A stretch of 64,000 bases of DNA from NCBI GenBank assembly GCA_039621445.1, contig CP154954.1, positions 33,949,737-34,013,736 of the forward strand. Direction: 5' to 3'. Both the position numbers and the translations under genes were made by a program. The notes under the pieces are model-generated. The model ran no database searches and was not told where the DNA came from. It was given only the letters and a program-made list of their open reading frames with translations. Source of the stretch: Euglena gracilis (taxonomy: Eukaryota). Below are positions 7,853 to 64,000 of the stretch, piece after piece (position 1 is the first letter of the stretch; each line of letters opens with the position of its first letter).

Positions 7853-27094
<19,242 letters not shown>

Positions 27095-40549: not shown

Positions 40550-43500
40550 CACGTGGTGCAATTTCGCGCCCGGGCCCACCCGCAATGAATACCACCGAAG
40601 GGCCACGGGTTACTCAGAAAGAGTTCACAAACACCATCGCAATCGCGAATAAGGTGAAGCCCCAATGGGACGGTGACCCGACCACATGGAAACAACTTTT
40701 CCGTGACTGGGAATACTTCTGGGACTTGAAGGGTCCAACCCAAGACGGAAACCCAGAAGTAATCAAAATGGAATTCATAGACTGTTTACCAAAAGACGAA
40801 AATGAACGCGCCAGACAATTTTTCATACGCGGGCGCATTTCTTTTCAGGATTTGGTAGAGCAATATGCTTCTTCATGTTCAAGTTTGGTTTCCAGAATCA
40901 CTCTGGAGAAAAAATGGCGGCAATATGCCCCCCATGACCGAAAATGGAGGTCGATAGACCTATGGTACTCAAAATGGCTCGCGTTGGCAGCCGAAGTAGA
41001 CGAGTTAGGCGAAACCCAAATGAAAGAGGAATTTGACGCAGTATTACTGCACTTTATACCCAAACTCACAGAAAAAAATTCACCGAGAGGAACTCGCAGG
41101 ACATATTTTGACGCTCGATGAGCGATGGAACTATGTTTCCAAACAGTTGAAGCTATCACAGCTTTTAGGACAAATCCAGTCGGCTTATACGAGCCACCCC
41201 ACGGCAGGAATACCTGCTATCCAAGTCAGTTCTGTGAAAAAAGTGTCACACTTATCACATACCGCTATGGCGGAATCCAAGTTGCGCAATTCGCGCTCTT
41301 CAGAAGAATTTTCGGGCAAATTGTGCTTTTTGTGTAACAAAAAGGGTCATATACCTTGCCATTGTCCAGATCCTGCAGCGCGAAAACGCAACGCAAGCCC
41401 AAGAGGATCAGCTTCATCATGCAGTTCTCGTTTTTCACAAAATGCGCATTCGCAAAAATCAAAATACCAATCACGATCAACATGTTCACTGTGCGGATCC
41501 ACCACCCCTCCCTCAACTGTCGCTATGCGAACTCTCACCACCCAAGCCATAGCCATCACGATATGAGTCGCAGTTCAAAAGATCATACTTTAGCCAAAAG
41601 GCACAAGGTAGGTCAAACAACAACCTCTATCGAGGATTATCACCCGGCTTCGGGCAGGGAGGGGGATGATACCCCATGTAACCAAAGGGATCATCCCTGC
41701 TTTAGCACTCATAAATTCAGAGACGTATATGCGTCAAGAAAGTCAATGGCTGATATGGCCACCGGTTCAGTTTTTGAGTGAAGGTACCAAAAATCCAAGG
41801 ACACGGACTACAGAGGCTACTAGAAAGGAGGTGACAGGAGTCGCGACCCTGGTCATCCCCTGCCCAGTATCCTTTCTGGTCAGTGTGCAAGGATTTTCTG
41901 GTGTCCCCGCTCAAAATTTTCAGGAACCTTGGACATATAGACCGTTTTGTGTTTCCGGTTGTGGCGCATCATGGGATACCCCATGAATGTCCATGTGGTT
42001 GAGTGGATTCCCGCTCCAAGAATGCACACAACACCGCAAAATTCTTCCCCCCCCCCCCTCAAACTTCCACTAATCATCACTTTTACATACCGTTTTCGAT
42101 GACAGCAACACCGTTTTCCACAACGCCAACACCGTTATCAACCCGGGGTAAAGAGAACGTGCCCCCCCCCTACCCACCGCAAATCCACAAACGTTCCACA
42201 TGCGGTAGGGGTAACAAGTAGTTTAACCCCCATTCGTTCCACTGGGTTCCAAGACGAAAGCCCTAAGGCCTGAAGTTTAAACGGTGTCGAGTAGTCGCCC
42301 AGCTGCTTTCAACTTTTAGTTTTCCACCAGGTTTGTCGATTCAGACAATCCTGTACACCCCCAGCAGCTCCAAAATTCGCATGCTCAAATTTTTTATTAC
42401 ACACTCACCCCCGCAGACCGACATGCGCGACAAGGACAACTACTCCGCTCCTTCCCCCCATGGTGTGCACCCTGGGGGAACTTTCCACACAATCACCAAC
42501 CAAACACAAAGGTGAATATATACAGCGCATATCGCGAATCCTGCGCATATCGCGCTTCCAAGCCTACCCCCCCCCCACGCACACGTTGTGCAGTGAAGCA
42601 ACTGCCCCCCCCCGCGTATCGCGCCATATCATGCACGTATCGCGCTAGACCCCGCGCGTATCGCGCCACCCACCTTAGCAACCCCCCTTTCCCACAATGT
42701 CGTGTGAGCACTATCGTCCATTTATGACACATGGGTATACGCCCAAACCACCCATATTCTTTTGGGAATCATTCCCAAAGTTATATGTGTGGAAATCCGC
42801 AACTCTGTTCATGGATGTTTGTTTCTGTTCCACATGATCAAATTGCAGATTTTTTTTGATGACAGCAAACAAGAAGTGATGTTTTATGTGAATACCGTTC
42901 TTTGCCCAATCCATTCCCACACCAAAAATATTTCGGTGTTCCCAAAGCTTTATGGAGCAAAGCAACACAAGTTATGTGATAAAGTTTTTGGGATGTATTG
43001 CAAATACTGCATTTTTCCCGAACACTTATCCAACTTGTGCTTTTTTGTGCCTTAAATGGCTTATTATTTTGGCAAAATGCAATCCCGATATGGGAAAATG
43101 CTCAAAATTACAGAAGTGAATCCCGATAGGGAAATAAGTTGAATTCCTTGAGAAAATCTGCAACATAGTTGCCCCCCCCAAAAGAAAATGAAGAAAATTC
43201 ATTCAAACATGCATTTTTATGGACTTGACCACTTAGCCTTAGGTCTATGTGACCAACACAACCTATGATGTGCAAGGCTTATAGGCCATTACCCATGTGG
43301 TCCATGGGTCCATAGGACCAATTTGCACAATTTGCAAGGACCAAAAGGACCAAAGGTCCACAAATCCATATTATAAAGTGAAAAGTCCATAGGACCTCAA
43401 AAAATGGCACAAAAAGCCATATTACATGGATGAAAGTGGCTGAATTGGCCAAAACAAGCCAAATAGGCTGGTTTTATGCAGATTTGCATAAGTGTCACTT

Positions 43501-46292
43501 TGGCATAGCCTCAAAACCACCACAAAAGCTTCAAAATTTCTGGCACCTCGTGCCATGAGGTTTTGACTGTATGTAGTAGTGCGTATGAGATAGAAACCAA
43601 AAGTTGTCTTTGTAGAATAAATTATGGGAGCTTATAGCAAAACCTCACTCACACAGGCAAAAGATCAAAGACGTATCTCAGCGCCTGTAGCTGGCCGATA
43701 GGCCATGTTACCCCTCATTCGAAAGCTCGTTCGATGAGCCGTCCAGCGGTGCAAACAGATCGCTGTAACTCTGCACGGTACTCTTATTTGAGGAGATCGT
43801 GAAAAATTGAATTAAGCCCAGCCAATCCGACCAAAAGCCAAATTTTGAGCCAGATCTTGTACGATCGTGTACCAGACTGGCAAATCAGCCTGAAAGGCTT
43901 CTACACCGTTTCTTACATCGTTTGAAGTGGCTAATTACCATTGGTTACCAGATTGGCTAATGGCCATTTTTTAGTACCTTTGGCAGCATTCTGCCCATTA
44001 CCCCCTCTGTATGGGCTATTAGGCCTGGTACAGTTCAGAGGGCTATAGCCCACAGTTTGGAGCCATTTCAGCTGACTAGAATCATTTTTAGGAGCACTTA
44101 TGTGCAAATTATCATTTAAATCATTGATTTTCTGCAATTTTTGGTGATTTTTCCCTATTCTGGCACTCATATCCCTAATGGGAATCATCTTGAGGCACTA
44201 TGCCAGAATGGAATGCAAAGGGATATGCTGATAATGGCAATTTTTCCTTTGCTCAAGATGTCATAGACATGTTTTACTTGTATTTTTAAGCGTATTTTTG
44301 CTTTTTTTGCGATATTTTTAAACAATTTTACAGCTTTTTGGGTGATGTGGTGTTATTAGACACCCAAATCCCAAAATCTGTGCAACAACAAACATGCAGT
44401 GTTATTGGACACTCTCAACAAGCACTATGTGCACTTGGCAATTGCAGTCTTAAATGACTCAAAATGCAACAAAGTTGCACTTTTGGTAACAAAAATGCAA
44501 CTTTTGACGCAGAATCTGCAATGCCGCCCACAATTTTGATAGGGATTTCCCTAAAAATCTGACAAAAGTCAGTATTTCTCAGTGGCATAGTCACTAATGA
44601 TGAGATTTTGTCATATTTGCAGTATTTTTTTCTACTTACCACACTAACGGCATTCTTGCCCCCCCCCACTTTATTCAGTGGGACCCCCTTACCGATATAA
44701 TTCGGACCCCCCCCCATTTTATTCAGTGGGACCCCCTTTCGGACCCCCTTACCGATATAATTCGGAGGACCCAATGGTCATCATGTGCAACACCAATGGT
44801 GTCATTCTGCAAGGTTTATAAGAACCATAGCTCAGAAATGGTGAAATTCTGCTTTTTCTTTCTTTCTTGTGCGCAATATGGGGATACCCACAATTTTTGC
44901 ATACACACACTTTGCTTTTGGAGGTATCATGCCTCCGATTGTACTGAAAGGTACAGAGTGATGAATTTCACCGCACTGGAACAATGTTCCATCCTTTTAT
45001 GTGCATTCACAGTTCATTTGCGGTTTTTCAGAGTGGTATAAGCCAGCCTAACCACATTTGTTCGGTGAATTGGCAGCAGCCTGCCACAATTCCGCATTTT
45101 TTCGGCGGTTGTACACCTCAGTGTGATCTTTTTTGGCAATCTGCCGAATTTTTTTGATTCGGGTATACGCCCAGTAGTATTCTGTGCCATGCATATTCCG
45201 CAAGGCAATTCTTCTTGGGCGATAAAGCCTACCCCCCCCATTATTTTTGGCTAATGCCAACCCTTCAGCCTACAGGCTGCACATCCAAGGCACAAATGCC
45301 AAATCTACAGTTTTTAGGGCTATTGCCCACTATTATGAGGTATACGCCTCTGGGGATACCCCATCGACAACATCGTGCCCGCGCAGCACTGTGAAGCCCT
45401 CACTAGCGGTATATGCCGCCAGTAAGAAGACCCACAGCGTACAGCGCGCACACCGCAATAATAGCCTCAACTTGTTACTTTTCTGCCTTAAGGCCCCATA
45501 AGACTGCCAGACAGCAAAAATTCTTTGTAAGGTCTTTAGACCAGCCCCCCACTCCTCTCCCCTTTCCCCCCCCGGGCAAAAATCGCTGCCGCCGGCAGTT
45601 GGTTTTGTAAATAGGTTTTCCTCCCTGGTCAGGTATGACTGGCCAGGTGCCCCTCCTTCCACACCCTACCCTTGCAATCTTTTCCGATTATGGAATGAGA
45701 CCACCCAAAGTGCCATAGGCACACCCCAAACGGGGTGGATGGGACTTTCTGGAATGAAAACCTTCCAGCTCCACTTTCCAAGCGGGCTCTTCCACTTCCA
45801 CCCCTTTACCGCAATAAGTAGTTAGCCGCATAAGCGGGTAAAATCTTTTGCGCGTTTTTGGTTTTTGGGTTCCCCTCCCTTCCTTCCGTTTCTGGTTTTA
45901 GACCTTGTGATGGAGAAGCAGACCCAAGACATGCGGTCCTGGTGTACATTCCTCAATCTCAGAGCTCTGTTTGAATCCTTGCTGGCCTGGTCCAGTAAGG
46001 AAATCGGGCAAAGCCCTGGGATTGGGATGTGTACCAGGCAGCATGAACATGGCACTGTGCATAGCAGCAGTCTGCAGAATGTACAATGGCATGCCAGATA
46101 GTACCATTCCATGTTCTGCAATACAAATTGCAGAATTAGGAATAGCCTATCCTATCTCGGATCTGCCTTCCCTTTCACAGGTGGTATCAGCTTTGTTTTG
46201 TTTTATGATTCATTAGCCGAAAAGGGCAAACCAAAGATTTGAAGATTTGAAGTAGGTCGACAGGCAGTGGGAATAGAGTCAGGGGACGTACA
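40550..46292 (+). mobile_element. Gag-only retroelement-like unit, copy 1 (5'-truncated)
   Basis: Near-identical to 48699-54762 (offset ~8149 bp, plus indels); frameshifted gag-like ORFs at 40586-41781. Confidence 0.75.
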
Positions 46293-46513
46293 CTTTACGT
46301 GCAATTTTGCGCCTCCCCGGCGGTAACGGCTGCGTTTTACGCACGCCCGCCGCGGGCAAAATTGCGCCTACCCGCCTGCAGCCCTTCGCAACAATTAGGT
46401 AAAGGATCGCCGACCTCTAGCCGGGGCAGAGCGCTCGTTTTTGGAGAGCCGGCGCAGCCGATTTCGGCCGAAAACGGCCGAAAAATGACGTTTTTCGGGA
46501 TGTTCGTGGTTTT
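46293..46513 (+). repeat. Single monomer of the 216-bp satellite between the two gag units
   Basis: Same sequence as the array monomer, preceded by the same ~42-bp leader as at 54721. Confidence 0.92.
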
Positions 46514-49500
46514 ATCCCCACACACAAGTCTTCAGCTCTATTGAGCATCCCCCCACACAAATCCCCGGCTCTATTGAGCATCCCCCCACCCAAATCCCCA
46601 GCTCTATTGAACATCCCCCCACCCAAATCCCCAGCTCCATTGAGCATCCCCCCACCCAAATTAACAGCTGAGCACCCCCCCACCCAATTGTCCAGCTCTA
46701 TCGAGCATTCCCAACCCCAACGGGGTGCAAACCTAATGGTGCCTCATCCCCCCGCCCAATGGGCTCCCCCACACCTATCGGTGTCCAGCAGCTCTATCGA
46801 GCTGCCCATAGCCCAACAGGCTCAACCACTCTTGTTGGAAAGCCGATCGGCTGACACGTATTCGCCCCAGCGAGATCTCACACCAATGCCGATAGGCACA
46901 TATGACCCTGAGGCGGTTACACCACGACACCGTTTTGTTGAGGATGAATTGGAAACACCATGTTATTTCCAGCCCCCCCATTCTCACCCACCTCCAAGTC
47001 TGATCGGACAATTGTCATCCCCACCCGATCGGGTCCTGCCATGCCTTGCATGGACTCGGCTAATTTACAGGCACAATTGCCACAAAAATTCCAAAAGGTG
47101 AGTGAGACAGTGTGTGAAATACAATCCCGCAATGATGCGAAGTTTTCCCACTTGCAACATAGTTTGCAGGCTTTGTCTGATCAACTGGAGCCAATTTCGG
47201 CAATTTTTCCACAATTACAGCAAAAGTTGCATGAACCTCCCACCAAATATCACGATTTGGGACAATTCATTACAGTGGAGCAGTTTTCTACCCTTGCAAC
47301 GGCTTTTCAGGAAGCGCAACAGCACATTTTCCAACTCAGCGGTGATTCCGCGAATTTTTCCCATTTTCATGCCCAACAACGTGAACGTTTTGCCTCCCGC
47401 ACTTATGTGCAAGAATTGGAGGAAAGAATTTCCTGTTTGGAGCAAAAATCTTGCCATTGTGGGGAAGTTCCTGCTGAAGTTGCAAGTTTTCACACCCAAA
47501 TCGCAAATAGTGAGAGTAGGTTTGAGGATTTGCAACAACAGCGGCAAAGTGACATGGCACAAATCGAAGCCGCTTTGGCTAAGGCTTATGCCCGCCATGC
47601 GGAAGTGACCGGCAAAATAACGGATGTGACCAGAATTCAAACCGCGATAGCGGATTTGCAGATATGCATGCAAGAATTAAGCACAAGATTGCTTCAGGTG
47701 CAATCACCAACCCCAGACGCATTGCCGTCGACCACACCCATACCCACACTCACATCCCTACACTTGGAGCAGTTTTGCGCTGAACTGCGCGCGGAAAATC
47801 ACGAAATTATGCAAGGATTTTGTGATAGTCTCATGAACACCGAGAAAACGGTGAAGCAGGATGTCACAAAACTGCAAATTGACATTACCGCGCTATCCGC
47901 GCAAGTTTTGGTCTTAATTGAACAGCCAAAGGCTGAAATAGTCAAAAGTCCGCATTCGGACCAACCATCTCCACAATTGGAGGCCATTTCCAGTGCGATA
48001 CGCACTTTAGCGGTACGAGTTCAAGAATTGGACACTGTTTTTGGTGCACTTTCACAAGATTTTCTGTCGATTTCCGACAAAATCACGCATTTTGATGAGT
48101 TACCATCACACCGTAATACAGGATGATGTGAGTCGGATAAACGATAATTTGCACGTTGTTGACAAATTGGAGCAAAGTGTGCGTGAATTGGCAATAAAAT
48201 TTGTGTTATGTACAACAAATCCCGCATTCGGGTACGGTTGGCACACTTGCCACATCTTTCACCTCAAAAAGCGCTATTCGCGCAACCATTGTAGAACCTA
48301 CTGGCACATGGCCACCAGACCATATTTCCGCTCATGTGGAAGTTCCCCCCGTGGCGTTACCAGTCCCAATGGAAAGGATTTCAGATGATGAGTCAGGTTC
48401 TCCATCGAGAACCAGACCAACCCACCTCTTAAGTCAAGAGATTCGGCAGTCCGAACTCATTAGCTGTATGGGCCGCAATCCCACACCAGTTGCTGGTCAT
48501 TCCTCGCAAATACGCTTGGAATCCCCAACAGTACAACCATGTGACACGTCACCCCCCCATGCGCATTCGCATCACCATTCGCGCATTCACGACACCTCAA
48601 ATGTACATGGTACCTATGGTACACTTGGTGGTATGTTCCATGCGCACTCACATATTTCCGCCAACAACACACTTGGTGTTGCACCACCTGTGTAACCACA
48701 CGTGGTGCAATTTCGCGCCCGGGCCCACCCGCAATGAATACCACCGAAGGGCCACGGGTTACTCAGAAAGAGTTCACAAACACCATCGCAATCGCGAATA
48801 AGGTGACGCCCCAATGGGACGGTGACCCGACCACATGGAAACAACTTTTCCGTGACTGGGAATACTTCTGGGACTTGAAGGGTCCAACCCAAGACGGAAA
48901 CCCAGAAGTAATCAAAATGGAATTCATAGACTGTTTACCAAAAGACGAAAAGGAACGCGCCAGACAATTTTTCATACGCGGGCGCATTTCATTTCAGGAT
49001 TTGGTAGAGCAATATGCTTCTTCATGTTCAAGTTTGGTTTCCAGAATCACTCTGGAGAAAAAATGGCGGCAATATGCCCCCCATGACCGAAAATGGAGGT
49101 CGATAGACCTATGGTACTCAAAATGGCTCGCGTTGGCAGCCGAAGTAGACGAGTTAGGCGAAACCCAAATGAAAGAGCAATTTGACGCAGTATTACTGCA
49201 CTTTATACAGAAAAACTCATAAAAGAAATTCACCGAGAGGAACTCGCAGGACATATTTTGACGCTCGATGAGCGATGGAACTATGTTTCCAAACAGTTGA
49301 AGCTATCACAGCTTTTAGGACAAATCCAGTCGGCTTATACGAGCCACCCCACGGCAGGAAAACCTGCTATCCAAGTCAGTTCTGTGAAAAAAGTGTCACA
49401 CTTATCACATACCGCTATGGCGGAATCCAAGTTGCGCAATTCGCGCTCTTCAGAAGAATTTTCGGACAAATTGTGCTTTTTGTGTAACAAAAAGGGTCAT

Positions 49501-52500
49501 ATATCTTGCCATTGTCCAAATCCTGCAGCGCGAAAGCGCAACGCAAGCCCAAGAGGATCAGCCTCATCATGCAGTTCTCGTTTTTCACAAAATGCGCATT
49601 CGCAAAAATCAAAATACCAATCACGATCAACATGTTCACTGTGCGGATCCACCAACCACCCCTCCCTCAACTGTCGCTATGCGAACTCTCACCACCCAAG
49701 CCATAGCCATCACGATATGAGTCGCAGTTCAAAAGATCATACTTTAGCCAAAAGGCACAAGGTAGGTCAAACAACAACCTCTATCGAGGATTATCACCCG
49801 GCTTCGGGCAGGGAGGGGGATGATACCCCATGTAACCAAAGGGATCATCCCTGCTTTAGCACTCATAAATTCAGAGACGTATATGCGTCAAGAAAGTCAA
49901 TGGCTGATATGGCCACCGGTTCAGTTTTTGAGTGAAGGTACCAAAAATCCAAGGACACGGACTACAGAGGCTACTAGAAAGGAGGTGACAGGAGTCGCGA
50001 CCCTGGTCATCCCCTGCCCAGTATCCTTTCTGGTCAGTGTGCAAGGATTTTCTGGTGTCCCCGCTCAAAATTTTCAGGAACCTTGGACATATAGACCGTT
50101 TTGTGTTTCCGGTTGTGGCGCATCATGGGATACCCCATGAATGTCCATGTGGTTGAGTGGATTCCCGCTCCAAGAATGCACACAACACCGCAAAATTCTT
50201 CCCCCCCCCCTCAAACTTCCACTAATCATCACTTTTACATACCGTTTTCGATGACAGCAACACCGTTTTCCACAACGCCAACACCGTTATCAACCCGGGG
50301 TAAAGAGAACGTGCCCCCCCCTACCCACCGCAAATCCACAAACGTTCCACATGCGGTAGGGGTAATAAGTAGCTTAACCCCCATTCGTTCCACTGGGTTC
50401 CAAGACGAAAGCCCTAAGGCCTGAAGTTTAAACGGTGTCGAGTAGTCGCCCAGCTGCTTTCAACTTTTCGTTTTCCACCAGGTTTGTCGATTCAGACAAT
50501 CCTGTACACCCCCAGCAGCTCCAAAATTCGCATGCTCAAATTTTTTATTACACACTCACCCCCGCAGACCGACATGCGCGACAAGGACAACTACTCCGCA
50601 CCTTCCCCCCATGGTGTGCACCCTGGGAGAACTTTCCACACAATCACCAACCAAACACAAAGGTGAATATATACAGCAAACCTAATCCCCCCACACTCTA
50701 TCTCCAACGGAGAGCTCTATTCATTGACCGATTTTTGTCAAGTGCAAGACAAATTCAGCACTATGTGCACATTCCCCCCGAAGCGCATAGCGCACATCAC
50801 TGCCGATGCGCATAGCTCACATTCCCCCCCAAGCGCTAATTGCGCACACCGCGCGTCGCGCGAATCCTGCGCATATCGCGCTTCCAAGCCTACCCCCCCC
50901 CACGCACACGTTGTGCAGTGAAGAAACTGCCCCCCCCCCGCGTATCGCGCCATATCATGCACGTATCGCGCTAGACCCCGCGCGTATCGCGCCACCCACC
51001 TTAGCAACCCCCCTTTCCCACAATGTCGTGTGAGCACTATCGTGCATTTATGACACATGGGTATACGCCCAAACCACCCATATTCTTTTGGGAATCATTC
51101 CCAAAGTTATATGTGTGGAAATCCGCAACTCTGTTCATGGATGTTTGTTTCTGTTCCACATGATCAAATTGCAGATTTTGTTTGATGACAGCAAACAAGA
51201 AGTGATGTTTTATGTGAATACCGTTCTTTGCCCAATCCATTCCCACACCAAAAATATTTCGGTGTTACCAAAGCTCTATGGAGCAAAGCAACACAAGTTA
51301 TGTGATAAAGTTTTTGGGATGTATTGCAAATACTGCATTTTTCCCGAAAACTTATCCAACTTGTGCTTTTTTGTGCCTTAAATGGCTTATTATTTTGGCA
51401 AAATGCAATCCCGATATGGGAAAATGCTCAAAATTACAGAAGTGAATCCCGATAGGGAAATAAGTTGAATTCCTTGAGAAAATCTGCAACATAGTTGCCC
51501 CCCCCAAAAGAAAATGAAGAAAATTCATTCAAACATGCATTTTTATGGACTTGACCACTTAGCCTTAGGTCTACGTGACCAACACAACCTATGATGTGCA
51601 AGGCTTATAGGCCATTACCCATGTGGTCCATGGGTCCATAGGACCAATTTGCACAATTTGCAAGGACCAAAAGGACCAAAGGTCCACAATACCATATTAT
51701 AAAGTGAAAAGTCCATAGGACCTCAAAAAATGGCACAAAAAGCCATATTACATGGATGAAAGTGGCTGAATTGGCCAAAACAAGCCAAATAGGATGGCTT
51801 TTGCAGATTTGTATAAGTGTCACTTTGGCATAGCCTCAAAACCACCACAAAAGCTTCAAAATTTCTGGCACCTCGTGCCATGAGGTTTTGACTGTATGTA
51901 GTAGTGCGTATGAGATAGAAACCAAAAATTGTCTTTGTAGAATAAATTATGGGAGCTTATAGCAAAACCTCACTCACACAGGCAAAAGATCAAAGACGTA
52001 TCTCAGCGCCTGTAGCTGGCCGATAGGCCATGTTACCCCTCATTCGAAAGCTCGTTCGATGAGCCGTCCAGCGGTGCAAACAGATCGCTGTAACTCTGCA
52101 CGGTACTCTTATTTGAGGAGATCGTGAAAAATTGAATTAAGCCCAGCCAATCCGACCAGAAGCCAAATTTTGAGCCAGATCTTGTACGATCGTGTACCAG
52201 ACTGGAAAATCAGCCTGAAAGGCTTCTATACTGTTTCTTACATCGTTTCTGATGGCTAATTACCATTGGTTACCAGATTGGCTAATGGCCATTTTTAGTA
52301 CCTTTGGCAGCATTCTGCCCATTACCCCCTCTGTATGGGCTATTAGTCCTGGTACAGTTCAGAGGGCCATAGCCCACAGTTTGGAGCCATTTCAGCTGAC
52401 TAGAATCATTTTTAGGAGCACTTATGTGCAAATTATCATTTAAATCATTGATTTTCTGCAATTTTTGGTGATTTTTCCCTATTCTGGCACTCATATCCCT

Positions 52501-54762
52501 AATGGGAATCATCTTGAGGCACTATGCCAGAATGGAATGCAAAGGGATATGCTGATAATGGCAATTTTTCCTTTGCTCAAGATGTCATAGACATGTTTTA
52601 CTTGTATTTTTAAGCGTATTTTTGCTTTTTTTGCGATATTTTTACACAATTTTACAGCTTTTTGGGTGATGTGGTGTTATTAGACACCCAAATCCCAAAA
52701 TCTGTGCAACAACAAACATGCAGTGTTATTGGACACTCTCAACAAGCACTATGTGCACTTGGCAATTGCAGTCTTAAATGACTCAAAATGCAACAAAGTT
52801 GCACTTTTGGTAACAAAAATGCACCTTTTGACGCAGAATCTGCATTGCCGCCCAAAATTTTGATAGGGATTTCCCTAAAAATCTGACAAAAGTCAGTATT
52901 TCTCAGTGGCATAGTCACTAATGATGAGATTTTGTCATATTTGCAGTATTTTTTTCTACTTACCACACTAACGGCATTCTTGCCCCCCACCCACTTTATT
53001 CAGTGGGACCCCCTTACCGATATAATTCGGACCCCCCCCCCATTTTATTCAGTGGGACCCCCTTACCGATATAATTCGGAGGACCCAATGGTCATCATGT
53101 GCAACACCAATGGTGTCATTCTGCAAGGTTTATAAGAACCATAGCTCAGAAAGTGAAATTCAGCTTTTTCTTTCTTTCTTGTGCGCAATATGGGGATACC
53201 CACAATTTTTGCATACACACACTTTGCTTTTGGAGGTATCATGCCTCCGATTGTACTGAAAGGTACAGAGTGATGAATTTCACCGCACTGGAACAATGTT
53301 CCATCCTTTTATGTGCATTCACAGTTCGTTTGTGGTTTTTCAAAGTGGTATAAGCCACACGGACCACAGTTGTTCTGTGAATTGGCAGCAGCCAGCCACA
53401 ATTCCGAAATTTTTCTGCGGTTGTACACCTCAGTATGATCTTTTTTGGCAATCTGCCGAATTTTTTTGATTCGGGTATAAGCCCAGTAGTATTTTGTGCC
53501 ATGCATATTCCGCAAAGCATTTTTTTCTTGGGCGATAAAGCCTACCCCCCCCATTATTTTTGGCTAATGCCAACCCTTCAGCCTACAGGCTGCACACCCA
53601 AGGCACAAATGCCAAATCTACAGTTTTTAGGGCTATTGCCCACTATTATGAGGTATACGCCTCTGGGGATACCCCATCGACAACATCGTGCCCGCGCAGC
53701 ACTGTGAAGCCCTCACTAGCGGTATATGCCGCCAGTAAGAAGACCCACAGCGTACAGCGCGCACACCGCAATAATAGCCTCAACTTGTTACTTTTCGGCC
53801 TTAAGGCCCCATAAGACTGCCAGACAGCAAAAATTCTTTGTAAGGTCTTTAGACCAGCCCCCCACTCCTCTCCCCTTTCCCCCCCCCCGGGCAAAAATCG
53901 CTGTCGCCGGCAGTTGGTTTTGTAAACAGGTTTTCCTCCCTGGTCAGGTATGACTGGCCAGGTGCCCCTCCTTCCACACCCTACCCTTGCAATCTTTTCC
54001 GATTATGGAATGAGACCACCCAAAGTGCCATAGGCACACCCCAAACGGGGTGGATGGAACTTTCTGGAATGAAAACCTTCCAGCCCCACTTTCCAAGCGG
54101 GCTCTTCCACTTCCACCCCTTTACCGCAATAAGTAGTTAGCCGCATAAGCGGGTAAAATCTTTTGCGCGTTTTTGGTTTTTGGGTTCCCCTCCCTTCCTT
54201 CCGTTTCTGGTTTTAGACCTTGTGATGGAGAAGCAGACCCAAGACATGCGGTCCTGGTGTACATTCCTCAATCTCAGAGCTCTGTTTGAATCCTTGCTGG
54301 CCTGGTCCAGTAAAGAAATCGGGCAAAGCCCTGGGAGGGGGATGTGTACCAGGCAGCATGAACATGGCACCGTGCATAGCAGCAGTCTGCAGAATGTACA
54401 ATGGCATGCCAGATAGTACCATTCCATGTTCTGCAATACAAATTGCAGAATTAGGAATAGCCTATCCTATCTCGGATCTGCCTTCCCTTTCACAGGTGGT
54501 ATCAGCTTTGTTTTGTTTTATGATTCATTAGCCGAAAAGGGCAAACCAAAGATTTGAAGATTTGAACTCCGATAGGAGATCACAACTGGAACTGAAGTTC
54601 CAAAATCCCAACTGGTTTGCCTTGTGCTCTGCATAACCCCAAAGGCAATAAAAACTAATGGTTAAGTGAAAGACTTTATTTTTTGTTACTCTCCTGGTTC
54701 TGTTCCCACGGGAGGGTGTAAGTAGGCCGACAGGCAGTGGGAATAGAGTCAGGGGACGTACA
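46514..54762 (+). mobile_element. Gag-only retroelement-like unit, copy 2
   Basis: Gag-like region, then ~4.7 kb with no pol motifs, then purine tract GGGAGGG directly before TGTAAG at 54717 (putative 3' LTR start). Confidence 0.7.
46541..49935 (+). pseudogene. gag: Disrupted gag-like ORF: 33-nt Pro-rich repeats, coiled-coil region, capsid-like segment, two CCHC zinc knuckles
   Basis: ORF pieces 46541-47101, 46960-48126, 48201-48695, 48734-49222 and 49258-49935. CFLCNKKGHISCHC and CSLCGSTNHPSLNC both fit CX2CX4HX4C. Confidence 0.75.
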
Positions 54763-56778
54763 CTTTACGTGCTATTTTGCGCCTCCCCGGCGGTAACGGC
54801 TGCGTTTTACGCACGCCCGCCGCGGGCAAAATTGCGCCTATCCGCCCGCCGCCCTTCGCAACAATTAGGAAAAGGATCGCCGACCCCTAGCCGGGGCAGA
54901 GCGCTCGTTTTTGGAGCGCCGGCGCAGCCGATTTCGGCCGAAAACGGCTGAAAATGACGTTTTTCGGGGTGTTCGTGGTTTACGTGCTATTTTGCGCCTC
55001 CCGGGCGGTAACGGCTGCGTTTTACGCACGCCCGCCGCGGGCAAAATTGCGCCTATCCGCCCGCCGCCCTTCGCAACAATTAGGTAAAGGATCGCCGACC
55101 TCTAGCCGGGGCAGAGCGCTCGTTTTTGGACCGCCGGCGCAGCCGATTTCGGCCGAAAACGGCCGAAAAATGACGTTTTTTTTTTTATTTATTTTTTCGT
55201 GGTTTTGCGTGCTATTTTGCGCCTCCCCGGCTGTAACGGCTGCGTTTTACGCACGCCCGCCGCGAGAAAAATTGCGCCTAGCCGCCCGCCGCCCTTCGCA
55301 ACAATTAGGTAAAGGATCGCCGACCTCTAGCCGGGGCAGAGCGCTGGTTTTTGGAGCGCTGGCGCAGCCGATTTCGCCCGAAAACGGCCGAAAAATGACG
55401 TTTTTCGGGGTGTTTGTGGTTTACGTGCTATTTTGCGCCTCCCGGGCGGTAACGGCTGCGTTTTACGCACGCCCGCCGCGGGCAAAATTGCGCCTATCCG
55501 CCCGCCGCCCTTCACAACAATTCGGTAAAGGATCGCCGACCTCTACCCGGGGCAGAGTGCTCGTTTTTGGAGCGCCGGCGCAGCCGATTTCGGCCGAAAA
55601 CGGCCGAAAAAAGACGTTTTTCGGGGTGTTCGTGGTTTACATGCTATTTTGCGCCTCCCGGGCGCTAACGGCTGCGCTTTACGCAACCCCGCCGCGGGCA
55701 AAATTGCTCCTATCCGCCCGCCGCCCTTCGCAACAATTAGGTAAAGGATCCACAACCTCTAGCCGGGGCAGAGCGCTCGTTTTTGGAGCGCCAGCGCAGC
55801 CGATTTCGGCCGAAAACGGCCGAAAAATGACGTTTTCCGGGGTGTTCGTGGTTTCCGTGCTATTTTGCGCCTCTCGGGCGGTAACGGCTGCGTTTTACGC
55901 ACGCCCGCCGCGGGCAAAATTGCGCCTATCCGCCCGCCGCCCTTCGCAACAATTAGGTAAAGTATCGCCGACCTCCATCCGGGGCAGAGCGCTCGTTTTT
56001 GGATCGCCGGCGCAGCCGATTTCGGCCGAAAACAGCCGAAAAATGACGTTTTTCGGGGCGTTCGTGGTTTACGTGCTATTTTGCGCCTCCCGGGCGGTAA
56101 CGGCTGCGTTTTACGCAACCCCGCCGTGGGCAAAATTGCGCCTATCCGCCCGCCGCCCTTCGCAACAATTAGGTAAACGATCGCCGACCTCCAGCCGGGG
56201 CAGAGCGCTCGTTTTTGGAGCGCCGGCGCAGCCGATTTCGGCCGAAAACGGCCGAAAAATGACGTTTTCGGGGGCGTTCGTGGTTTACGTGCTATTTTGC
56301 GCCTCCCGGGCGGTAACGGCTGCGTTTTACGCACGCCCGCCGCGGGCAAAATTGCGCCTATCCGCCCGCCGCCCTTCGCAACAATTAGGTAAAGGATCGC
56401 AAGACCTCTAGCCGGGGCAGAGCGCTCGTTTTTGGAGCGCCGGCGCAGCCGATTTCGGCCGAAAACGGCCGAAAAATGACGTTTTTCGGGGTGTTCGTGG
56501 TTTTCGTGCTATTTTGCGCCTCCCGGGCGGTAACGGCTGCGTTTTACGCACGCCCGCCGCGGGCAAAATTGCGCCTATCCGCCCGCCGCCCTTCGCAACA
56601 AGCAGCTAAAAGGATCGCCGACCTCTAGCCGGGGCAGAGCGCTCGTTTTTGGAGCGCCGGCGCAACCGATTTCCGCCGAAAACGGCCAAAAAATGACGTT
56701 TTTCGGGGTGTTCTGTGTGCGGCAGACGGGAGATCCTACGGAGGTTGGTAGCCGGCGCGTAGTACCAAGCCGAGTATC

Positions 56779-56851
56779 GCTCGAGTAGCTTATTCGGTAA
56801 GGTGCTGGGCTCACACGCGGGAGGTCGTGGGTTCGAGACCCAGGTCCCGCC
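56779..56851 (+). ncRNA. tRNA-Val(CAC)-derived module in the 5' LTR (pseudo-tRNA, Pol III A/B boxes)
   Basis: A box TAGCTTATTCGG; anticodon loop CTCACAC; AGGTC; T arm TGGG-TTCGAGA-CCCA. The acceptor stem does not pair. Confidence 0.75.
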
Positions 56852-57470
56852 GTGTGAGTCCTGATCGATCCCGTACGGGCAGAGGGCATACCGCGGGGAT
56901 CGATCGGCGCGTGAGGCTGCGCACGTGGACGAACGTTGATCGGTCGGATTACCACGGGCGTGGCCCCTCGCCAGCGGACGAGCCACGGCAAGTAGTATGA
57001 GCTGCCCCGTGGCCGTCCAACGGCGGGTGGTGACAACCAACGTAAACATGGTAGCACAGGAACCCGTCTAATGCCACACGAACCGGGAAATCAGAGCCTG
57101 ACCCCACGGCGCCCGGAAGGCGGAGGCGGACGCGCCGAGTCTAGGGCGACTGAAACTCCTACACCGTTCCAAAGTCTCAAGCCGATGCAAAGGGGGACGC
57201 TCCAAGGCGGCAGAGCCCGTGGAAGTCGACAACACGTAAACTGCCGGCAATAGCAAACCCGAGCTGCAGGGGTCGGCAGCCTGGTGACGCAGTACTCGTG
57301 AGAAGCACTCAGCCAACTAGGGCCGTGTGAGGCATAACCCGAGCTGCAGGGGCCACGGCCATAGTGACGCAGTGGGCTAGTGTAGTAAGGCTCTTGGGAG
57401 GGGAGTGTGTGCGGCAGACGGGAGATCCTACGGAGGTTGGTAGCCGGCGCGTAGTACCAAGCCGAGTATC

Positions 57471-57543
57471 GCTCGAGTAGCTTATTCGGTAAGGTGCTGG
57501 GCTCACACGCGGGAGGTCGTGGGTTCGAGACCCAGGTCCCGCC
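57471..57543 (+). ncRNA. tRNA-Val(CAC)-derived module in the 3' LTR
   Basis: Identical copy of 56779-56851. Confidence 0.75.
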
Positions 57544-58620
57544 GTGTGAGTCCTGAGCGATCCCGTACGGGCAGAGGGCATACCGCGGGGATCGATCGGC
57601 GCGTGAGGCTGCGCACGTGGACGAACGTCGATCGGTCGGATTACCACGGGCGTGGCCCCTCGGCAGGGGACGAGCCATGGCAAGTAGTATGAGCTGCCCC
57701 GTGGCCGTCCAACGGCGGGTGGTGACAACCAACGTAAACATGTTCGTGGTTTGAGCGCTATTTTGCGCCTCTCGGGCGGTAACGGCTGCATTTTACGCAC
57801 GCCCGCCGCGGGCTAAATTGCGCCTATCCGCCCGACGCCCTTCGCAACAATTAGGTAAAGGATCGCCGACCTCTAACCGGGGCAGAGCGCTCGTTTTTGT
57901 GGCGCCGGCGCAACCGATTTCGGCCGAAAACGGCTGAAAAATGACGTTTTTCAGGGTGTTCGTGGTTTACGTGCTATTTTGCGCCTCCCGGGCGGTAACG
58001 GCTGCGTTTTACGCAACCCCGCCGCGGGCAAAATTGCGCCTATCCGCCCGCCGCCCTTCGCAACAATTAGGTAAACGACCGCCGACCTCTAGCCGGGGCA
58101 GAGCGCTCGTTTTTGGAGCGCCGGCGCAACCGATTTCCGCCAAAAACGGCCGAAAAATGACGTTTTTCCGGGTGTTCGTGATTTGAGTGCTATTTTGCGC
58201 CTCTCGGGCGGTAACGGCTGCGTTTTACGCACGCCCGCCGCGGGCAAAATTGCGCCTATCCGCCCGCCGCCCTTCGCAACAATTAGGTAAAGGATCGCCG
58301 ACCTCTAGCCGGGGCAGCCGGCGCAGCCGATTTCGGCCGATAACGGCCGAAAAATGACGTTTTTCGGGGTGTTCGTGGTTTACGTGCTATTTTGCGCCTA
58401 CGGGGCGGTAACGGCTGCGTTTTACGCAACCCCGCCGCGGGCAAAATTGCGCCTATCCGCCCGCCGTCCTTCGCAACAATTAGGTAAAGGATCGCCGACC
58501 TCTAGCCGGGGAAAAGCGCTCGTTTTTGGAGAGCCGGCGCAGCCGATTTCGACCGAAAACGGCCGAAAAATGACGTTTTTCGGGGTGTTCGTGGTTTACG
58601 TGCTATTTTGCGCCTCCCGG

Positions 58621-59098
58621 TGTGGGTCAGGGGTGCTGAGTGCCCAAAACAACATAACCTAACCCAACCCAACCTGATGACTCTGCAGTTAGGATTAGGA
58701 AAATCTTATTAGGAATTTCAATTGCTGACCCCATTGTCCCTGCACAGGGCTCTGTCTTGTTTTTGTCTGTTTCAAGTTCAAGAATCGAATTATCTTGGTT
58801 ATCAATTATCATTCTTACCTGGACAGTACGTGGTTCATTACATTGGTGCTGGTTTTGGAATTGCTGAATTGCTTGTATTGTGCTGTTTGTCTTGTGAATT
58901 TTTTATCAAAGAAAAGGTGTGAGCCACCCAACTCACCTGTTTTCATTAAAAAAACCCACCAAAAACAAAGAAAATGCAATTTTTAAAACAGGCCGCGAGG
59001 GGAATTGAAAACACCCTGGGCAGGGTTAAAGACCCTACGCAACGGGGTGCCGGCCCCGAGGAACTGGAAACTCCAGGGCGGGCACCACGGTTACAACA
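58621..59098 (+). mobile_element. Solo LTR, 478 bp
   Basis: TG...CA; 4-bp TSD CCGG within a satellite monomer. Confidence 0.9.
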
Positions 59099-61442
59099 CC
59101 GGGCGGTAACGGCTGCGTTTTACGCACGCCCGCCGCGGGCAAAATTGCGGCTATCCGCCCGCCGCCCTTCGCAGCAATTAGGTAAAGGATCGCCGACCTC
59201 TAGCCGGGGCGGAGTGCTCGTTTTTGGAGCGCCGGCGCAGCCGATTTCGGCCGAAAATGGCGGAGAAAAGAAGTTTTTCGGGGTGTTCGTGGTTTGCGTG
59301 CTATTTTGCGCCTCCCGGGCGGTAACGGCTGCGTTTTACGCACGCCCGCCGCGGGCAAAATTGCGCCTATCCATCCGCCGCCCTTCGCAACAATTAGGTA
59401 AAGGATCGCAAGACCTGTAGCCGGGGCAGAGCGCTCGTTTTTGGAGCGCCGGCGCAGCCGATTTCGGCCGAAAACGGCCGAAAAATGACGTTTTTCGGGG
59501 TGTTCGTGGTTTACGTGCTATTTTGCGCCTCCCGGGCGGTAACGGCTGCGTTTTACGCACGCCCGCCGCGGGCAAAACTGCGCCTATCCGCCCGCCACCC
59601 TTCGCAACAACTAGGTAAAGGATCGCCGACCTCTAGCCGGGGCAGAGCGCTCGTTTTTGGAGCGCCGGCACAGCCGATTTCGGCCGAAAACGGCCGAAAA
59701 ATGACGTTTTTCGGGGTGTTCGTGGTTTACGTGCTATTTTGCGCCTCCCGGGCGCTAACGGCTGCGTTTTACGCACGCCCGCCGCGGACAAAATTGCGCC
59801 TTTCCGCCCGCCGCCCTTCGCAACAATTAGGTAAAGGATCGCCGACCTCTAGCCGGGGCAGAGCGCTCGTTTTTGGAGCGCCGGCGCAGCCGATTTCGGC
59901 CGAAAACGGCCGAAAAATGACGTTTTTCGGGGTGTTCGTGGTTTACGTGCTATTTTGCGCCTCCCGGGCGGTAACGGCTGCGTTTTACGCACCCCCGCCG
60001 CGGGCAAAATTGCGCCTATCCGGCCGCCGCCCTTCGCAACAGTTAGGTAAAGGATCGCCGACCTCTAGCCGGGGCAGAGCGCTCGTTTTTGGAGCGCCGG
60101 CGCAACCCATTTCGGCCGAAAACGGCCGAAAAATGACGTTTTTCGGGGTGTTCGTGGTTTACGTGCTATTTTGCGCCTCCCGGGCGCTAACGGCTGCGTT
60201 TTACGCACGCCCGCCGCGGGCAAAATTGCGCCTTTCCGCCCGCCGCCCTTCGCAACAATTAGGTAAAGGATCGCCGACCTCTAGCCGGGGCAGAGCGCTC
60301 GTTTTTGGAGCGCCGGCGCAGCCGATTTCGGCCGAAAACGGCCGAAAATGACGTTTTTACCGGTGTTCGTGGTTTACGTGCTATTTTGCGCCTCCCGGGC
60401 GGTAACGGCTGCGTTTTACGGCGCCCTTCGCAACAATTAGCTAAAGGATCGCCGACCTCTAGCCGGGGCAGAGCGCTCGTTTTTGCAGCGCCGGCGCAGC
60501 CGATTTCGGCCGAAAACGGCCGAAAAATGACGTTTTTCTGGGTGTTCGTGGTTTACGTGCTACTTTGCGCCTCCCGGGCGGTAACGGCTGCGTTTTACGC
60601 ACGCCCACCGCGGGCAAAATTGCGCCTATCCGCCCGCCGTCCTTCGCAACAATTAGGTAAAGGATCGCAAGACCTGTAGCCGGGGCATAGCGCTCGTTTT
60701 TGGAGCGCCGGCGAAACCGATTTCGGCCGAAAACGGCCGAAAAATGACGTTTTTCGGGATGTTCGTGGTTTACGTGCTATTTTGCGCCTCCCGGGCGCTA
60801 ACGGCTGCGTTTTACGCACGCCCGCCGCGAGCAAAATTGCGCCTATCCGCCCGCCGCCCTTCGCAACAATTAGGTAAAGGATCGCCGACCTCCAGCCGGG
60901 GCAGAGCGCTCGTTTTTGGAGCGCCGGCGCAGCCGATTTCGGCCGAAAACGGCCGAAAAATGACGTTTTTCGGGGTGTTCGTGGTTTACGTGCTATTTTG
61001 CGCCTCCCGGGCGCTAACGGCTGTGTTTTATGCACGCCCGCCGCCGGCAAAATTGCGCCTATCCGCCCGCCGCCCTTCGCAACAATAAGGTAAAGAATCG
61101 CCGACCTCCAGCCGGGGCAGAGCGCTCGTTTTTGGTGCGCCGGCGCAGCCGATTTCGGCCGAAAACGGCCGAAAAATGACGTTTTTCGGGGTGTTCGTGG
61201 TTTACGTGCTATTTTGCGCCTTCCAGGCGGTAACGGCTGCGTTTTACGCACGCCCGCCGCGGGCAAAATTGTGCTTATCCGCCCGCCGCCCTTCGCAACA
61301 ATTAGGTAAAGGATCGCCGACCTCTAGCAGGGGCAAAGCGCTCGTTTTTGGAGCGCCGGCGCAGCCGATTTCGACCGAAAACGGCCGAAAAATGACGTTT
61401 TTCGGGGTGTTCGTGGTTTACGTGCTATTTTGCGCCTCCCGG

Positions 61443-61920
61443 TGTGAGTCAGGGGTGCTGAGTGCCCAAAACAGCATAACCTAACCCAACCCAACCGGAT
61501 GACTCTGCAGTTAGGATTAGGAAAATCTTATTAGGAATTTCAATTGCTGACCCCATTGTCCCTGCACAGGGCTCTGTCTTGTTTTTGTCTGTTTCAAGTT
61601 CAAGAATCGAATTATCTTGGTTATCAATTATCATTCTTACCTGGACAGTACGTGGTTCATTACATTGGTGCTGGTTTTGGAATTGCTGAATTGCTTGTAT
61701 TGTGCTGTTGGTCTTGTGGATTTTTTATCAAAGAAAAGGTGTGAGCCACCCAACTCAACTGTTTTCATTAAAAAAACCCACCAAAAAAAAAGAAAATGCA
61801 ATTTTTAAAACAGGCCGCGAGGGGAATTGAAAACACCCTGGGCAGGGTTAAAGACCCTACGCAACGGGGTGCCGGCCCCGAGGAACTGGAAACTCCAGGG
61901 CGGGCACCACGGTTAAAACA
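61443..61920 (+). mobile_element. Solo LTR, 478 bp
   Basis: TG...CA; TSD CCGG at the same monomer position. Confidence 0.9.
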
Positions 61921-62573
61921 CCGGGCAGTAACGGCTGCGTTTTACGCACGCCCGCCGCGGGCAAAATTGCGCCTATCCGCCCGCCGCCCTTCGCACCAAT
62001 TAGGTAAAGGATCGCCGACCTCTAGCCGGGGCAGAGCGCTCGTTTTTGGAGCGCCGGCGCAGCCGATTTCGGCCGAAAACGGGCAAAAAACGACGTTTTT
62101 CGGGGTGTTCGTGGTTTACGTGCTATTTTGCGCCTCCCGGGCGGTAACGGCTGCGTTTTACGCACGCCCACCGCGGGCAAAATTGCGCCTATCCGCCCGC
62201 CGCCCTTCGCAACAATTAGGTAAAGGATCGCAAGACCTGTAGCCGGGGCAGACCGCTCGTTTTTGGAGCGCCGGCGCAACCGATTTCGGCCGAAAACGGC
62301 CGAAACATGACGTTTTTCGGGATGTTCGTGGTTTACGTGCTATTTTGCGCCTCCCGGGCGGTAACGGCTGCGTTTTACACACGCCCGCCGCGGGCAAAAG
62401 TGCGCCTATCCGCCCGCCGCCCTTCGCAACAAGTAGGTAAAGGATCGCCGACCTCTAGCCGGGGCAGAGCGCTCGTTTTTGGAGCGCCGGCGCAGCCGAT
62501 TTCGGCCGAAAACGGCCGAAAAATGACGTTTTTCGGGGTGTTCGTGGTTTACGTGCTATTTTGCGCCTCCCGG

Positions 62574-64000
62574 TGTGAGTCAGGGGTGCTGAGTGGCCAA
62601 ACAACATAACCTAAACCAACCAAACCTGATGACTCCGCAGTTAGGTTTAGGAAAATCTTATTAGGAATTTCAATTGCTGACCCCATTGTCCCTGCACAGG
62701 GCTCTGTCTTGTTTTTGTCTGTTTCAAGTTCAAGAATCGAATTATCTTGGTTATCAATTATCATTCTTACCTGGACAGTACGTGGTTCATTACATTGGTG
62801 CTGGTTTTGGAATTGCTGAATTGCTTGTATTGTGCTGTTGGTCTTGTGTATTTTTTATCAAAGAAAAGGTGTGAGCCACCCAACTCACCTGTTTTCATTA
62901 AAAAAACCCACCAAAAAAAAAGAAAATGCAATTTTTAAAACAGGCCGCGAGGGGAATTGAAAACACCCTGGGCAGGGTTAAAGACCCTACGCAACGGGGT
63001 GCCGGCCCCGAGGAACTGGAAACTCCAGGGCGGGCACCACGGTTACAACATGGTCGCAGAGGTAGACTGCCCAATTTTGATTCCCCTCCAACATGCGGCT
63101 ACGAACAACAAGCTGAAAAACGACAAGAAACTGCATAAACTGACGCTGACATGCCTGCTGCCTCAACTGCCATCGCTAGGATGGTGGAGCCGGCGGATGG
63201 CTGCCCAGCTCTGAACCCAACACTGGATGTGCCAACTGCCTTAACCGCCATCGTTAGGGTGGTGGAGCAGGCGGATGGCTTCCCAGCCCTGAACCAAACA
63301 CTGGAAATGCCAGCTGCCTTAACCGCCATCGCTAGGGTGGTGGAGCCGGCAGATGGCTTTGCCGCCATGTACCAATCACTGGACATCAACAGGTGGACTG
63401 AACCGGAACAAAACGGCACAGACATTACAGTGCCACAGACATGCAATGACAGCCCACTTGTCATTGCCATGGTGCACATGGACCAGGACGACACCGAACA
63501 GACTGGTCCAGCACCAGATTACACAGAACTGGACGAAAACAACGAACCGTACTTCGACGAACAGGTTTTTGCACCACAAAACTGGTACCAACAGCCAGAA
63601 ACGGACACTCAGAACAACCAAAACTGGCAAACCGCAACAGCACAGCAACCAGGAACCCAGAGTTTTGCACTGGTGGCGGTACGACAGAGCCCGGAACAAC
63701 CAGACCGCCTCCAGGGTGAAACTAAAACTTCGTACCAGGAACCTTCGTACAGCTCGTACGAGATTCCACAGCCGGAACCACAGAACCAGAACACTGACTG
63801 GGACTGGTGGTCGAACTTTGCATGCGAAACTGGACAGCTGACCCAGGAATTTCAACAGTTCAGACGCAAAACTGAACGGACGAATCAGCAAACGGCAGAA
63901 ACTCTGCAGCAGCTGCAACAAACAACGACGGAGTGGGTCAGCGAACTGCACGCCACAATGAACAGACAGGGTGAAGCACTCATGACAGAAATAAACGGCA
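62574..64000 (+). mobile_element. LTR retrotransposon 5' end: LTR 62574-63050, PBS 63051-63062, internal region runs off the window
   Basis: Same LTR as the solo copies, followed directly by TGGTCGCAGAGG. Confidence 0.88.
63151..64000 (+). CDS. Putative gag-like ORF (3'-incomplete) with three 26-aa N-terminal repeats and the start of a coiled coil
   Basis: Open frame from the ATG at 63151 to the window end (MPAASTAIARMVEPADGCPALNPTLD-like x3 ... ETLQQLQQTTTEWVSELH), positioned just after the PBS. It is absent from the ORF track because it has no stop in the window. Confidence 0.6.
   Translation, partial: MPAASTAIARMVEPADGCPALNPTLDVPTALTAIVRVVEQADGFPALNQTLEMPAALTAIARVVEPADGFAAMYQSLDINRWTEPEQNGTDITVPQTCNDSPLVIAMVHMDQDDTEQTGPAPDYTELDENNEPYFDEQVFAPQNWYQQPETDTQNNQNWQTATAQQPGTQSFALVAVRQSPEQPDRLQGETKTSYQEPSYSSYEIPQPEPQNQNTDWDWWSNFACETGQLTQEFQQFRRKTERTNQQTAETLQQLQQTTTEWVSELHATMNRQGEALMTEING

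Follow-up and report, generated by a model that had tools for sequence, protein, structure and literature searches.

A Helenus-type miniature LTR retrotransposon with a tRNA-derived module in each long terminal repeat

Positions 56714–57740 of the 64-kb stretch of DNA analysed here (the window) are occupied by a complete retrotransposon-like element of 1027 bp, in which two direct long terminal repeats (LTRs), a primer-binding site (PBS), a polypurine tract (PPT) and a target site duplication (TSD) are all present. The 5′ LTR (335 bp, 56714–57048, + strand, TGTGTG...AAACA) is identical to the 3′ LTR (335 bp, 57406–57740, + strand, with TG..CA ends) at 330 of 335 positions; the five mismatches lie at LTR positions 152, 224, 258, 262 and 273, and two of them are CpG-to-TpG changes. 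Directly after the 5′ LTR is the PBS, TGGTAGCACAGGA (57049–57061, + strand), which we call initiator-tRNA-Met type, judging by its sequence: 12 of its 13 bases equal those of the PBS complementary to the 3′ end of human initiator tRNA-Met in the form printed in PMC1797187, a human reference that may differ from the host’s own tRNA.

Between the LTRs is an internal region of 357 bp (57049–57405, + strand), closed by the PPT GGGAGGGGAG (57396–57405, + strand), which adjoins the 3′ LTR. The internal region is non-coding, and the longest open reading frame (ORF) on the sense strand of the whole element spans 85 amino acids. Four longer antisense ORFs overlap the element, as expected because the sequence is 63% GC, and none of the four has a Pfam match at E ≤ 1. 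The internal region also contains an imperfect 38-nt direct repeat (57256–57293 and 57336–57373), its two copies 79% identical and 80 nt apart. TG..CA LTRs, a PBS and a PPT beside the LTRs and a short TSD are the marks of a terminal-repeat retrotransposon in miniature (TRIM), a type of about 1 kb or less without gag or pol, and all are found here at a length of 1027 bp, slightly above the nominal 1000 bp. An earlier reading of this stretch (the original prediction) had described a complete 1027-bp element with 335-bp TG..CA LTRs differing by about five substitutions, a 5-bp TSD, a PBS, a PPT, no coding capacity and a young age, and this description was reproduced in each of its parts.

Flanking the element on both sides is the pentanucleotide TGTTC, at 56709–56713 on the left and at 57741–57745 on the right. 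Because the element landed in a 216-bp satellite (array at 54764–62573, not itself part of the element; seen by Tandem Repeats Finder and as repeat families D1 and D2), the monomers around it show what the empty site looks like. Twenty-four monomers agree with the uninterrupted site to within two mismatches, 15 of them without any, and in 22 of the 24 a single TGTTC is followed directly by GTG. The 5-bp duplication is therefore real, and TGTTC is a true target site duplication. Divergence between the LTRs is 0.015 (1.5%), corresponding to roughly 0.6 to 7.5 million years at assumed rates of 1.3e-8 or 1e-9 substitutions per site per year, neither of which need be the host’s rate; the insertion is young, given this divergence and the perfect target duplication.

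Embedded in each LTR at positions 66–138 is a 73-nt tRNA-derived module (56779–56851 in the 5′ LTR and 57471–57543 in the 3′ LTR, both on the + strand), recognised by the Rfam tRNA model RF00005, a pattern of tRNA invariants and box B. The two copies are identical, and since both LTRs carry the module it was present in the parental RNA and is no later insertion into the present copy. Box A, TAGCTTATTCGG (TAGCT...CGG), occupies LTR positions 73–84 (56786–56797 and 57478–57489, + strand), and box B, GGTTCGAGACC, occupies LTR positions 117–127 (56830–56840 and 57522–57532, + strand). Box B matches the consensus GGTTCGANNCC at 11 of 11 positions; this consensus occurs three times in the window, against 0.58 expected, and two of these occurrences are the ones in the LTR modules. 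The distance from the start of box A to the start of box B is 44 nt, which is the spacing of a working type-2 promoter of RNA polymerase III (Pol III).

The cloverleaf of the module is decayed, with 15 of 21 pairs intact (acceptor stem 4/7, D stem 4/4, anticodon stem 3/5 and T stem 4/5), while the universal tRNA invariants, including those that form boxes A and B, are all kept. Intact promoter positions combined with decayed stems give the look of the heads of tRNA-derived short interspersed nuclear elements (SINEs). Rfam aligns positions 1–71 of RF00005 at the same place in both LTRs, with a score of 15.8 bits against a gathering score of 29; ARAGORN calls no tRNA anywhere in the window and, when applied to the LTR alone, none down to 85% thresholds, lower thresholds producing a different register. 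With Rfam below its gathering score and ARAGORN finding none, the module is not a tRNA gene. The original prediction had placed in each LTR a sequence resembling tRNA-Val(CAC) with A and B boxes and had proposed a check with tRNA finders. The tRNA origin and the boxes stand, borne out by the invariant pattern and the complete box B match, and the full tRNA model can be aligned; as the module is not callable as a tRNA, the Val(CAC) label goes back to the triplet at the anticodon position, CAC, only.

Could the tRNA likeness be a chance resemblance in a GC-rich LTR? The negative ARAGORN result would fit such an origin, as would the Rfam E-value of 6 for the module region, obtained in a search over 4227 families. 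Dividing 6 by 4227, however, a calculation of our own, gives an E-value of about 0.0014 for the tRNA family taken alone, and the alignment runs the full length of the model with the arms and loops in correct order and spacing (D arm, anticodon loop with T33, AGGTC variable loop and T loop). The invariant pattern, which requires no stems (U8, G10, A14, G18 G19, A21, U33, a GTTCRA T-loop, C61 and purine/pyrimidine positions), has exactly two matches in the window, one per LTR module, and none in 600 simulated 64-kb sequences, 300 of window-like and 300 of LTR-like composition. Chance resemblance is rejected by these simulations, and we give it a negligible probability; the module is clearly tRNA-derived. 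The Rfam search of 56500–57950 returned five matches at E ≤ 10, among which mir-662 and Mico1 are chance matches (15–20 bits against cut-offs of 60–88), and no family reached its gathering level anywhere in the window.

TRIMs with tRNA-derived sequence in their LTRs have been described as Helenus (Kojima 2024, Biology 13:119; PMC10886601), and a class, TRIMp3, has been proposed for Helenus together with Ajax and Cassandra (PMC10886601). Helenus elements have two LTRs, a PBS, a PPT, 4- or 5-bp duplications, a box A of the form TRGCY...YGG and a box B containing GGTTC; their tRNA part is usually non-functional and is not complementary to the PBS, and their length ranges from 311 to 1263 bp (PMC10886601). 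Reported hosts are rust and agaric fungi, six animal phyla and Selaginella, and the family count stands at 113 for rust fungi, 40 for wasps and 51 for bivalves, with others besides (PMC10886601). Since it has all of these stated features, the element is a Helenus by definition, an assignment made from the described features. The original prediction had seen in it a tRNA-based analogue of the plant TRIM Cassandra and had not recognised it as a described family. The presence of a tRNA-derived module with both promoter boxes in each LTR does make it a structural analogue of Cassandra, but elements of this kind have been on record since 2024 as Helenus (PMC10886601). A literature search returned TRIMs with tRNA-derived LTR modules only in Kojima 2024 and in papers citing it; the passages on Helenus in two of those later papers mention it by citation only.

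We consider it about 80% probable that the element is a non-autonomous Helenus-type TRIM of the TRIMp3 class, copied in trans by a host LTR retrotransposon that makes 5-bp TSDs, and that its LTRs carry a decayed tRNA copy that keeps a type-2 Pol III promoter. The helper would be an autonomous element of the host with initiator-tRNA-Met-like priming. TFIIIC would bind boxes A and B of the 5′ LTR, and transcription by Pol III would begin at about 56775–56779. Runs of four T (T4) are absent from the sense strand over all 1027 bp, the first such run being at 57761, 21 nt past the 3′ end of the element; because of this, Pol III would be expected to continue past the PBS and across the internal region, PPT and entire 3′ LTR, and to terminate at the first flanking T4, at 57761. 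The resulting RNA would open with R-U5 and close with U3-R-U5, and such an RNA should suffice for tRNA-primed minus-strand strong-stop synthesis, transfer to the 3′ R, PPT-primed plus-strand synthesis and integration. For transcription, this internal type-2 Pol III promoter is the model with the best support; the intact boxes, the T4-free sense strand and the absence of the Pol II motifs named below fit it but do not prove it, and we put the use of Pol III by the element at roughly even odds.

Several points weigh against this reading. The lack of a T4 is weak evidence, as 62% of composition-matched shuffles also have none, and although none of the five LTR differences falls in the 73-nt module, chance alone would produce this with an expectation of 29%. 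At about 990 nt, the transcript would be a long one for Pol III. No TATA, CCAAT, AATAAA or ATTAAA motif occurs anywhere in the element, but such missing RNA polymerase II (Pol II) motifs prove little, because Pol II promoters without a TATA box and poly(A) signals of non-canonical form are conceivable in a GC-rich host. The single copy examined speaks neither for a fixed module in the family nor for selection on the boxes. None of the elements in the window qualified as the autonomous partner; the LTR element that starts at 62574 was considered as helper and rejected, for it has an initiator-Met-like PBS but 4-bp, not 5-bp, duplications. Pol III transcription has not been experimentally validated for any Helenus (PMC10886601).

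Two of these points, the T4-free sense strand and the difference-free module, both being within chance, are shared with a rival account, in which Pol II transcribes the element as an ordinary TRIM and the tRNA-like stretch travels along as a passenger: a remnant of a tRNA-derived SINE or tRNA pseudogene that landed in an ancestral LTR and has since been copied without acting as a promoter. The state of the module, which falls under every tRNA threshold and has six of 21 stem pairs broken, suits a passenger as well, and SINE insertion into an LTR is the proposed origin of such modules (PMC10886601), an origin that needs no continued promoter use. Against it, every universal invariant forming boxes A and B is intact despite the decay of the stems. 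The 44-nt spacing fits a working type-2 promoter, the element offers no TATA, CCAAT or poly(A) signal as a substitute, and the module is followed by no SINE body or A-rich tail. On this balance we regard a passenger module as possible but doubtful, and favour a module that keeps its Pol III promoter.

Extending from the 3′ half of the module is a predicted 55-nt hairpin with 23 pairs (56807–56861, + strand; RNAfold), identical in sequence in both LTRs. At its tip lies the T-arm-like stem-loop, and at its base the anticodon region is paired with the bases that immediately follow the module on the 3′ side, so that it consists of the 3′ half of the module and 10 further nt; as these 10 nt lie past the tRNA-like part, the hairpin is a feature absent from a plain tRNA copy. 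The folding energy of the region (56770–56880) is -54.5 kcal/mol (z = -3.67), and none of 200 shuffles is as stable.

The hairpin gives some room to a different explanation, in which the module would be kept for a role at the RNA level other than promotion, under any polymerase, either as an RNase P/RNase Z processing signal that defines the RNA ends or, through the 55-nt hairpin, as a packaging or dimerisation signal for the Gag of the helper. Both the stability of the 23-pair hairpin beyond that of all shuffles and its extension 10 nt beyond the tRNA-like part speak for a role of this kind. However, only four of seven pairs remain in the acceptor stem on which RNase P and RNase Z depend, GC-rich sequence generally folds well, and the case is built on a single sequence, too few for covariation; we think such a role improbable as the reason for the module’s retention, and hold to the module as a retained promoter. 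A more elaborate version of the Helenus reading is likewise unlikely: the element would represent an independent Helenus lineage outside the published hosts, still active and with the longest LTRs, in which the module was remodelled to the 55-nt hairpin with a second role in packaging or end processing, in addition to serving as the Pol III promoter for a genomic RNA of about 1 kb without an internal terminator.

Searches of the window by blastn, relaxed blastn and nhmmer returned no second copy of the element. Among metagenome and viral contigs, the box A-to-box B pattern had no exact match; the 23-nt stretch around box B had none in metagenome, viral and prokaryote genome contigs, and the junction of LTR end and PBS had none in prokaryote genome contigs. 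These collections are mostly prokaryotic or viral and exact matches were required, so the blanks say little. Another candidate helper, a gag-bearing 8.2-kb tandem duplication at 40.4–54.2 kb, was rejected: it is not similar to the TRIM, and its 41.5–46.5 kb stretch contains no pol-like ORF of at least 80 amino acids. A set of 10 long ORFs of the window gave no Pfam match above cut-off.

The satellite array around the element borders on or contains copies of a second LTR type of about 478 bp with TGTG...AACA ends, located at 58621–59098, 61443–61920 and 62574–63050, with 98% identity between copies. All three occupy an identical position within the 216-bp satellite monomer. The first two are solo LTRs flanked by the 4-bp duplication CCGG. 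The third is followed by the PBS-like sequence TGGTCGCAGAGG and an ORF that runs off the window, which is why we take a full element to start at 62574. The pattern of the three copies fits either amplification of an LTR-bearing satellite block or integration targeted to the satellite.

Upstream are the two unit copies of the gag-bearing duplication (40450–45900 and 48545–54200), about 99% identical and about 8.2 kb apart, with gag-like ORFs that contain a CCHC zinc knuckle. The gag-like ORF is nearest to Retrotrans_gag clusters in a protein atlas (0.90), which is a lead only, without a Pfam match, and it has one homologue, an unnamed protein. In the 41.5–46.5 kb stretch there is no pol-like ORF of at least 80 amino acids. 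Isolated 216-bp satellite monomers lie between the unit copies, at 46251–46512, far from the main array. Elsewhere in the window are a 21-bp minisatellite array of almost 5 kb (18273–23187) with an inverted part at its end, an ATAC/TATG microsatellite run of about 1.2 kb (8741–9913), and dispersed repeats at 1180–2300, with similar sequence up to about 12.6 kb and at 26.7–31.8 kb, which are composed of long G, C and A homopolymer runs and a recurring motif resembling aaaattttcggcgc; these homopolymer-rich repeats yield many spurious Gly/Pro-rich ORFs.

The class to which the element belongs is already known, and no new category is opened by it. As a young, full-length and clean copy whose target duplication is perfect and whose sense strand is free of Pol III terminators, it is a good substrate for asking whether Pol III makes the genomic RNA of an LTR-type element. 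For annotation, Helenus-type LTRs inflate tRNA pseudogene counts, and hundreds of predicted tRNA genes of rust fungi are Helenus LTRs (PMC10886601). If the host is outside the listed groups, the patchy distribution of Helenus is extended.

Among known systems, Cassandra is like the present element in being a non-autonomous LTR element whose LTRs contain a copy of a small-RNA gene with an internal Pol III promoter. In Cassandra the copy is of 5S rRNA (boxes A, IE and C), and conserved Pol III terminators lie in the LTR, according to the passages on it in PMC7215508 and PMC10886601, whereas the module described here is of tRNA type and the whole element is free of T4 terminators; 5S rRNA is not among the five Rfam matches at E ≤ 10 in 56500–57950. 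Ajax, a nemertean TRIM with a partial 5S promoter, shares the TRIMp3 class and a 5-bp TSD (PMC10886601), but differs in its 5S-derived promoter fragment, its tRNA-Leu PBS and its length of 421–434 bp (PMC10886601). Retrozymes, which carry hammerhead ribozymes in their LTRs, are likewise small non-coding LTR elements with a functional-RNA module unrelated to the LTRs of their helper; unlike them, the present region has no Rfam match to a hammerhead or other ribozyme at E ≤ 10. With tRNA-derived SINEs (SINE2) the element has in common a tRNA-derived head with intact boxes A and B and decayed stems. Such SINEs have no LTRs, PBS or PPT, end in an A-rich tail or one resembling a long interspersed nuclear element (LINE), and are copied by target-primed reverse transcription, in contrast to the full LTR-type anatomy found here, with the module inside a 335-bp LTR and no tail after it.

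With Helenus the element shares two LTRs, a PBS, a PPT, a short TSD and the lack of an ORF, with a tRNA-like stretch in each LTR that keeps box A (TRGCY...YGG) and box B (GGTTC) in a non-functional cloverleaf. The length of 1027 bp falls within the 311–1263 bp of the described elements, and the module is not complementary to the PBS, their longest exact complement being 6 nt. The LTR, at 335 bp, exceeds the longest reported Helenus LTR, which is 323 bp (PMC10886601). Animal families have 4-bp TSDs and His, Leu or Lys primers (PMC10886601), unlike the 5-bp TSD and the putative initiator-Met-type PBS of this element, both of which are found in a minority of fungal families, where the PBS corresponds to the 3′ end of initiator tRNA-Met (PMC10886601). 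The Helenus families of fish were aligned with tRNA-Val-CAC (PMC10886601), recalling the CAC triplet at the anticodon position of the module.

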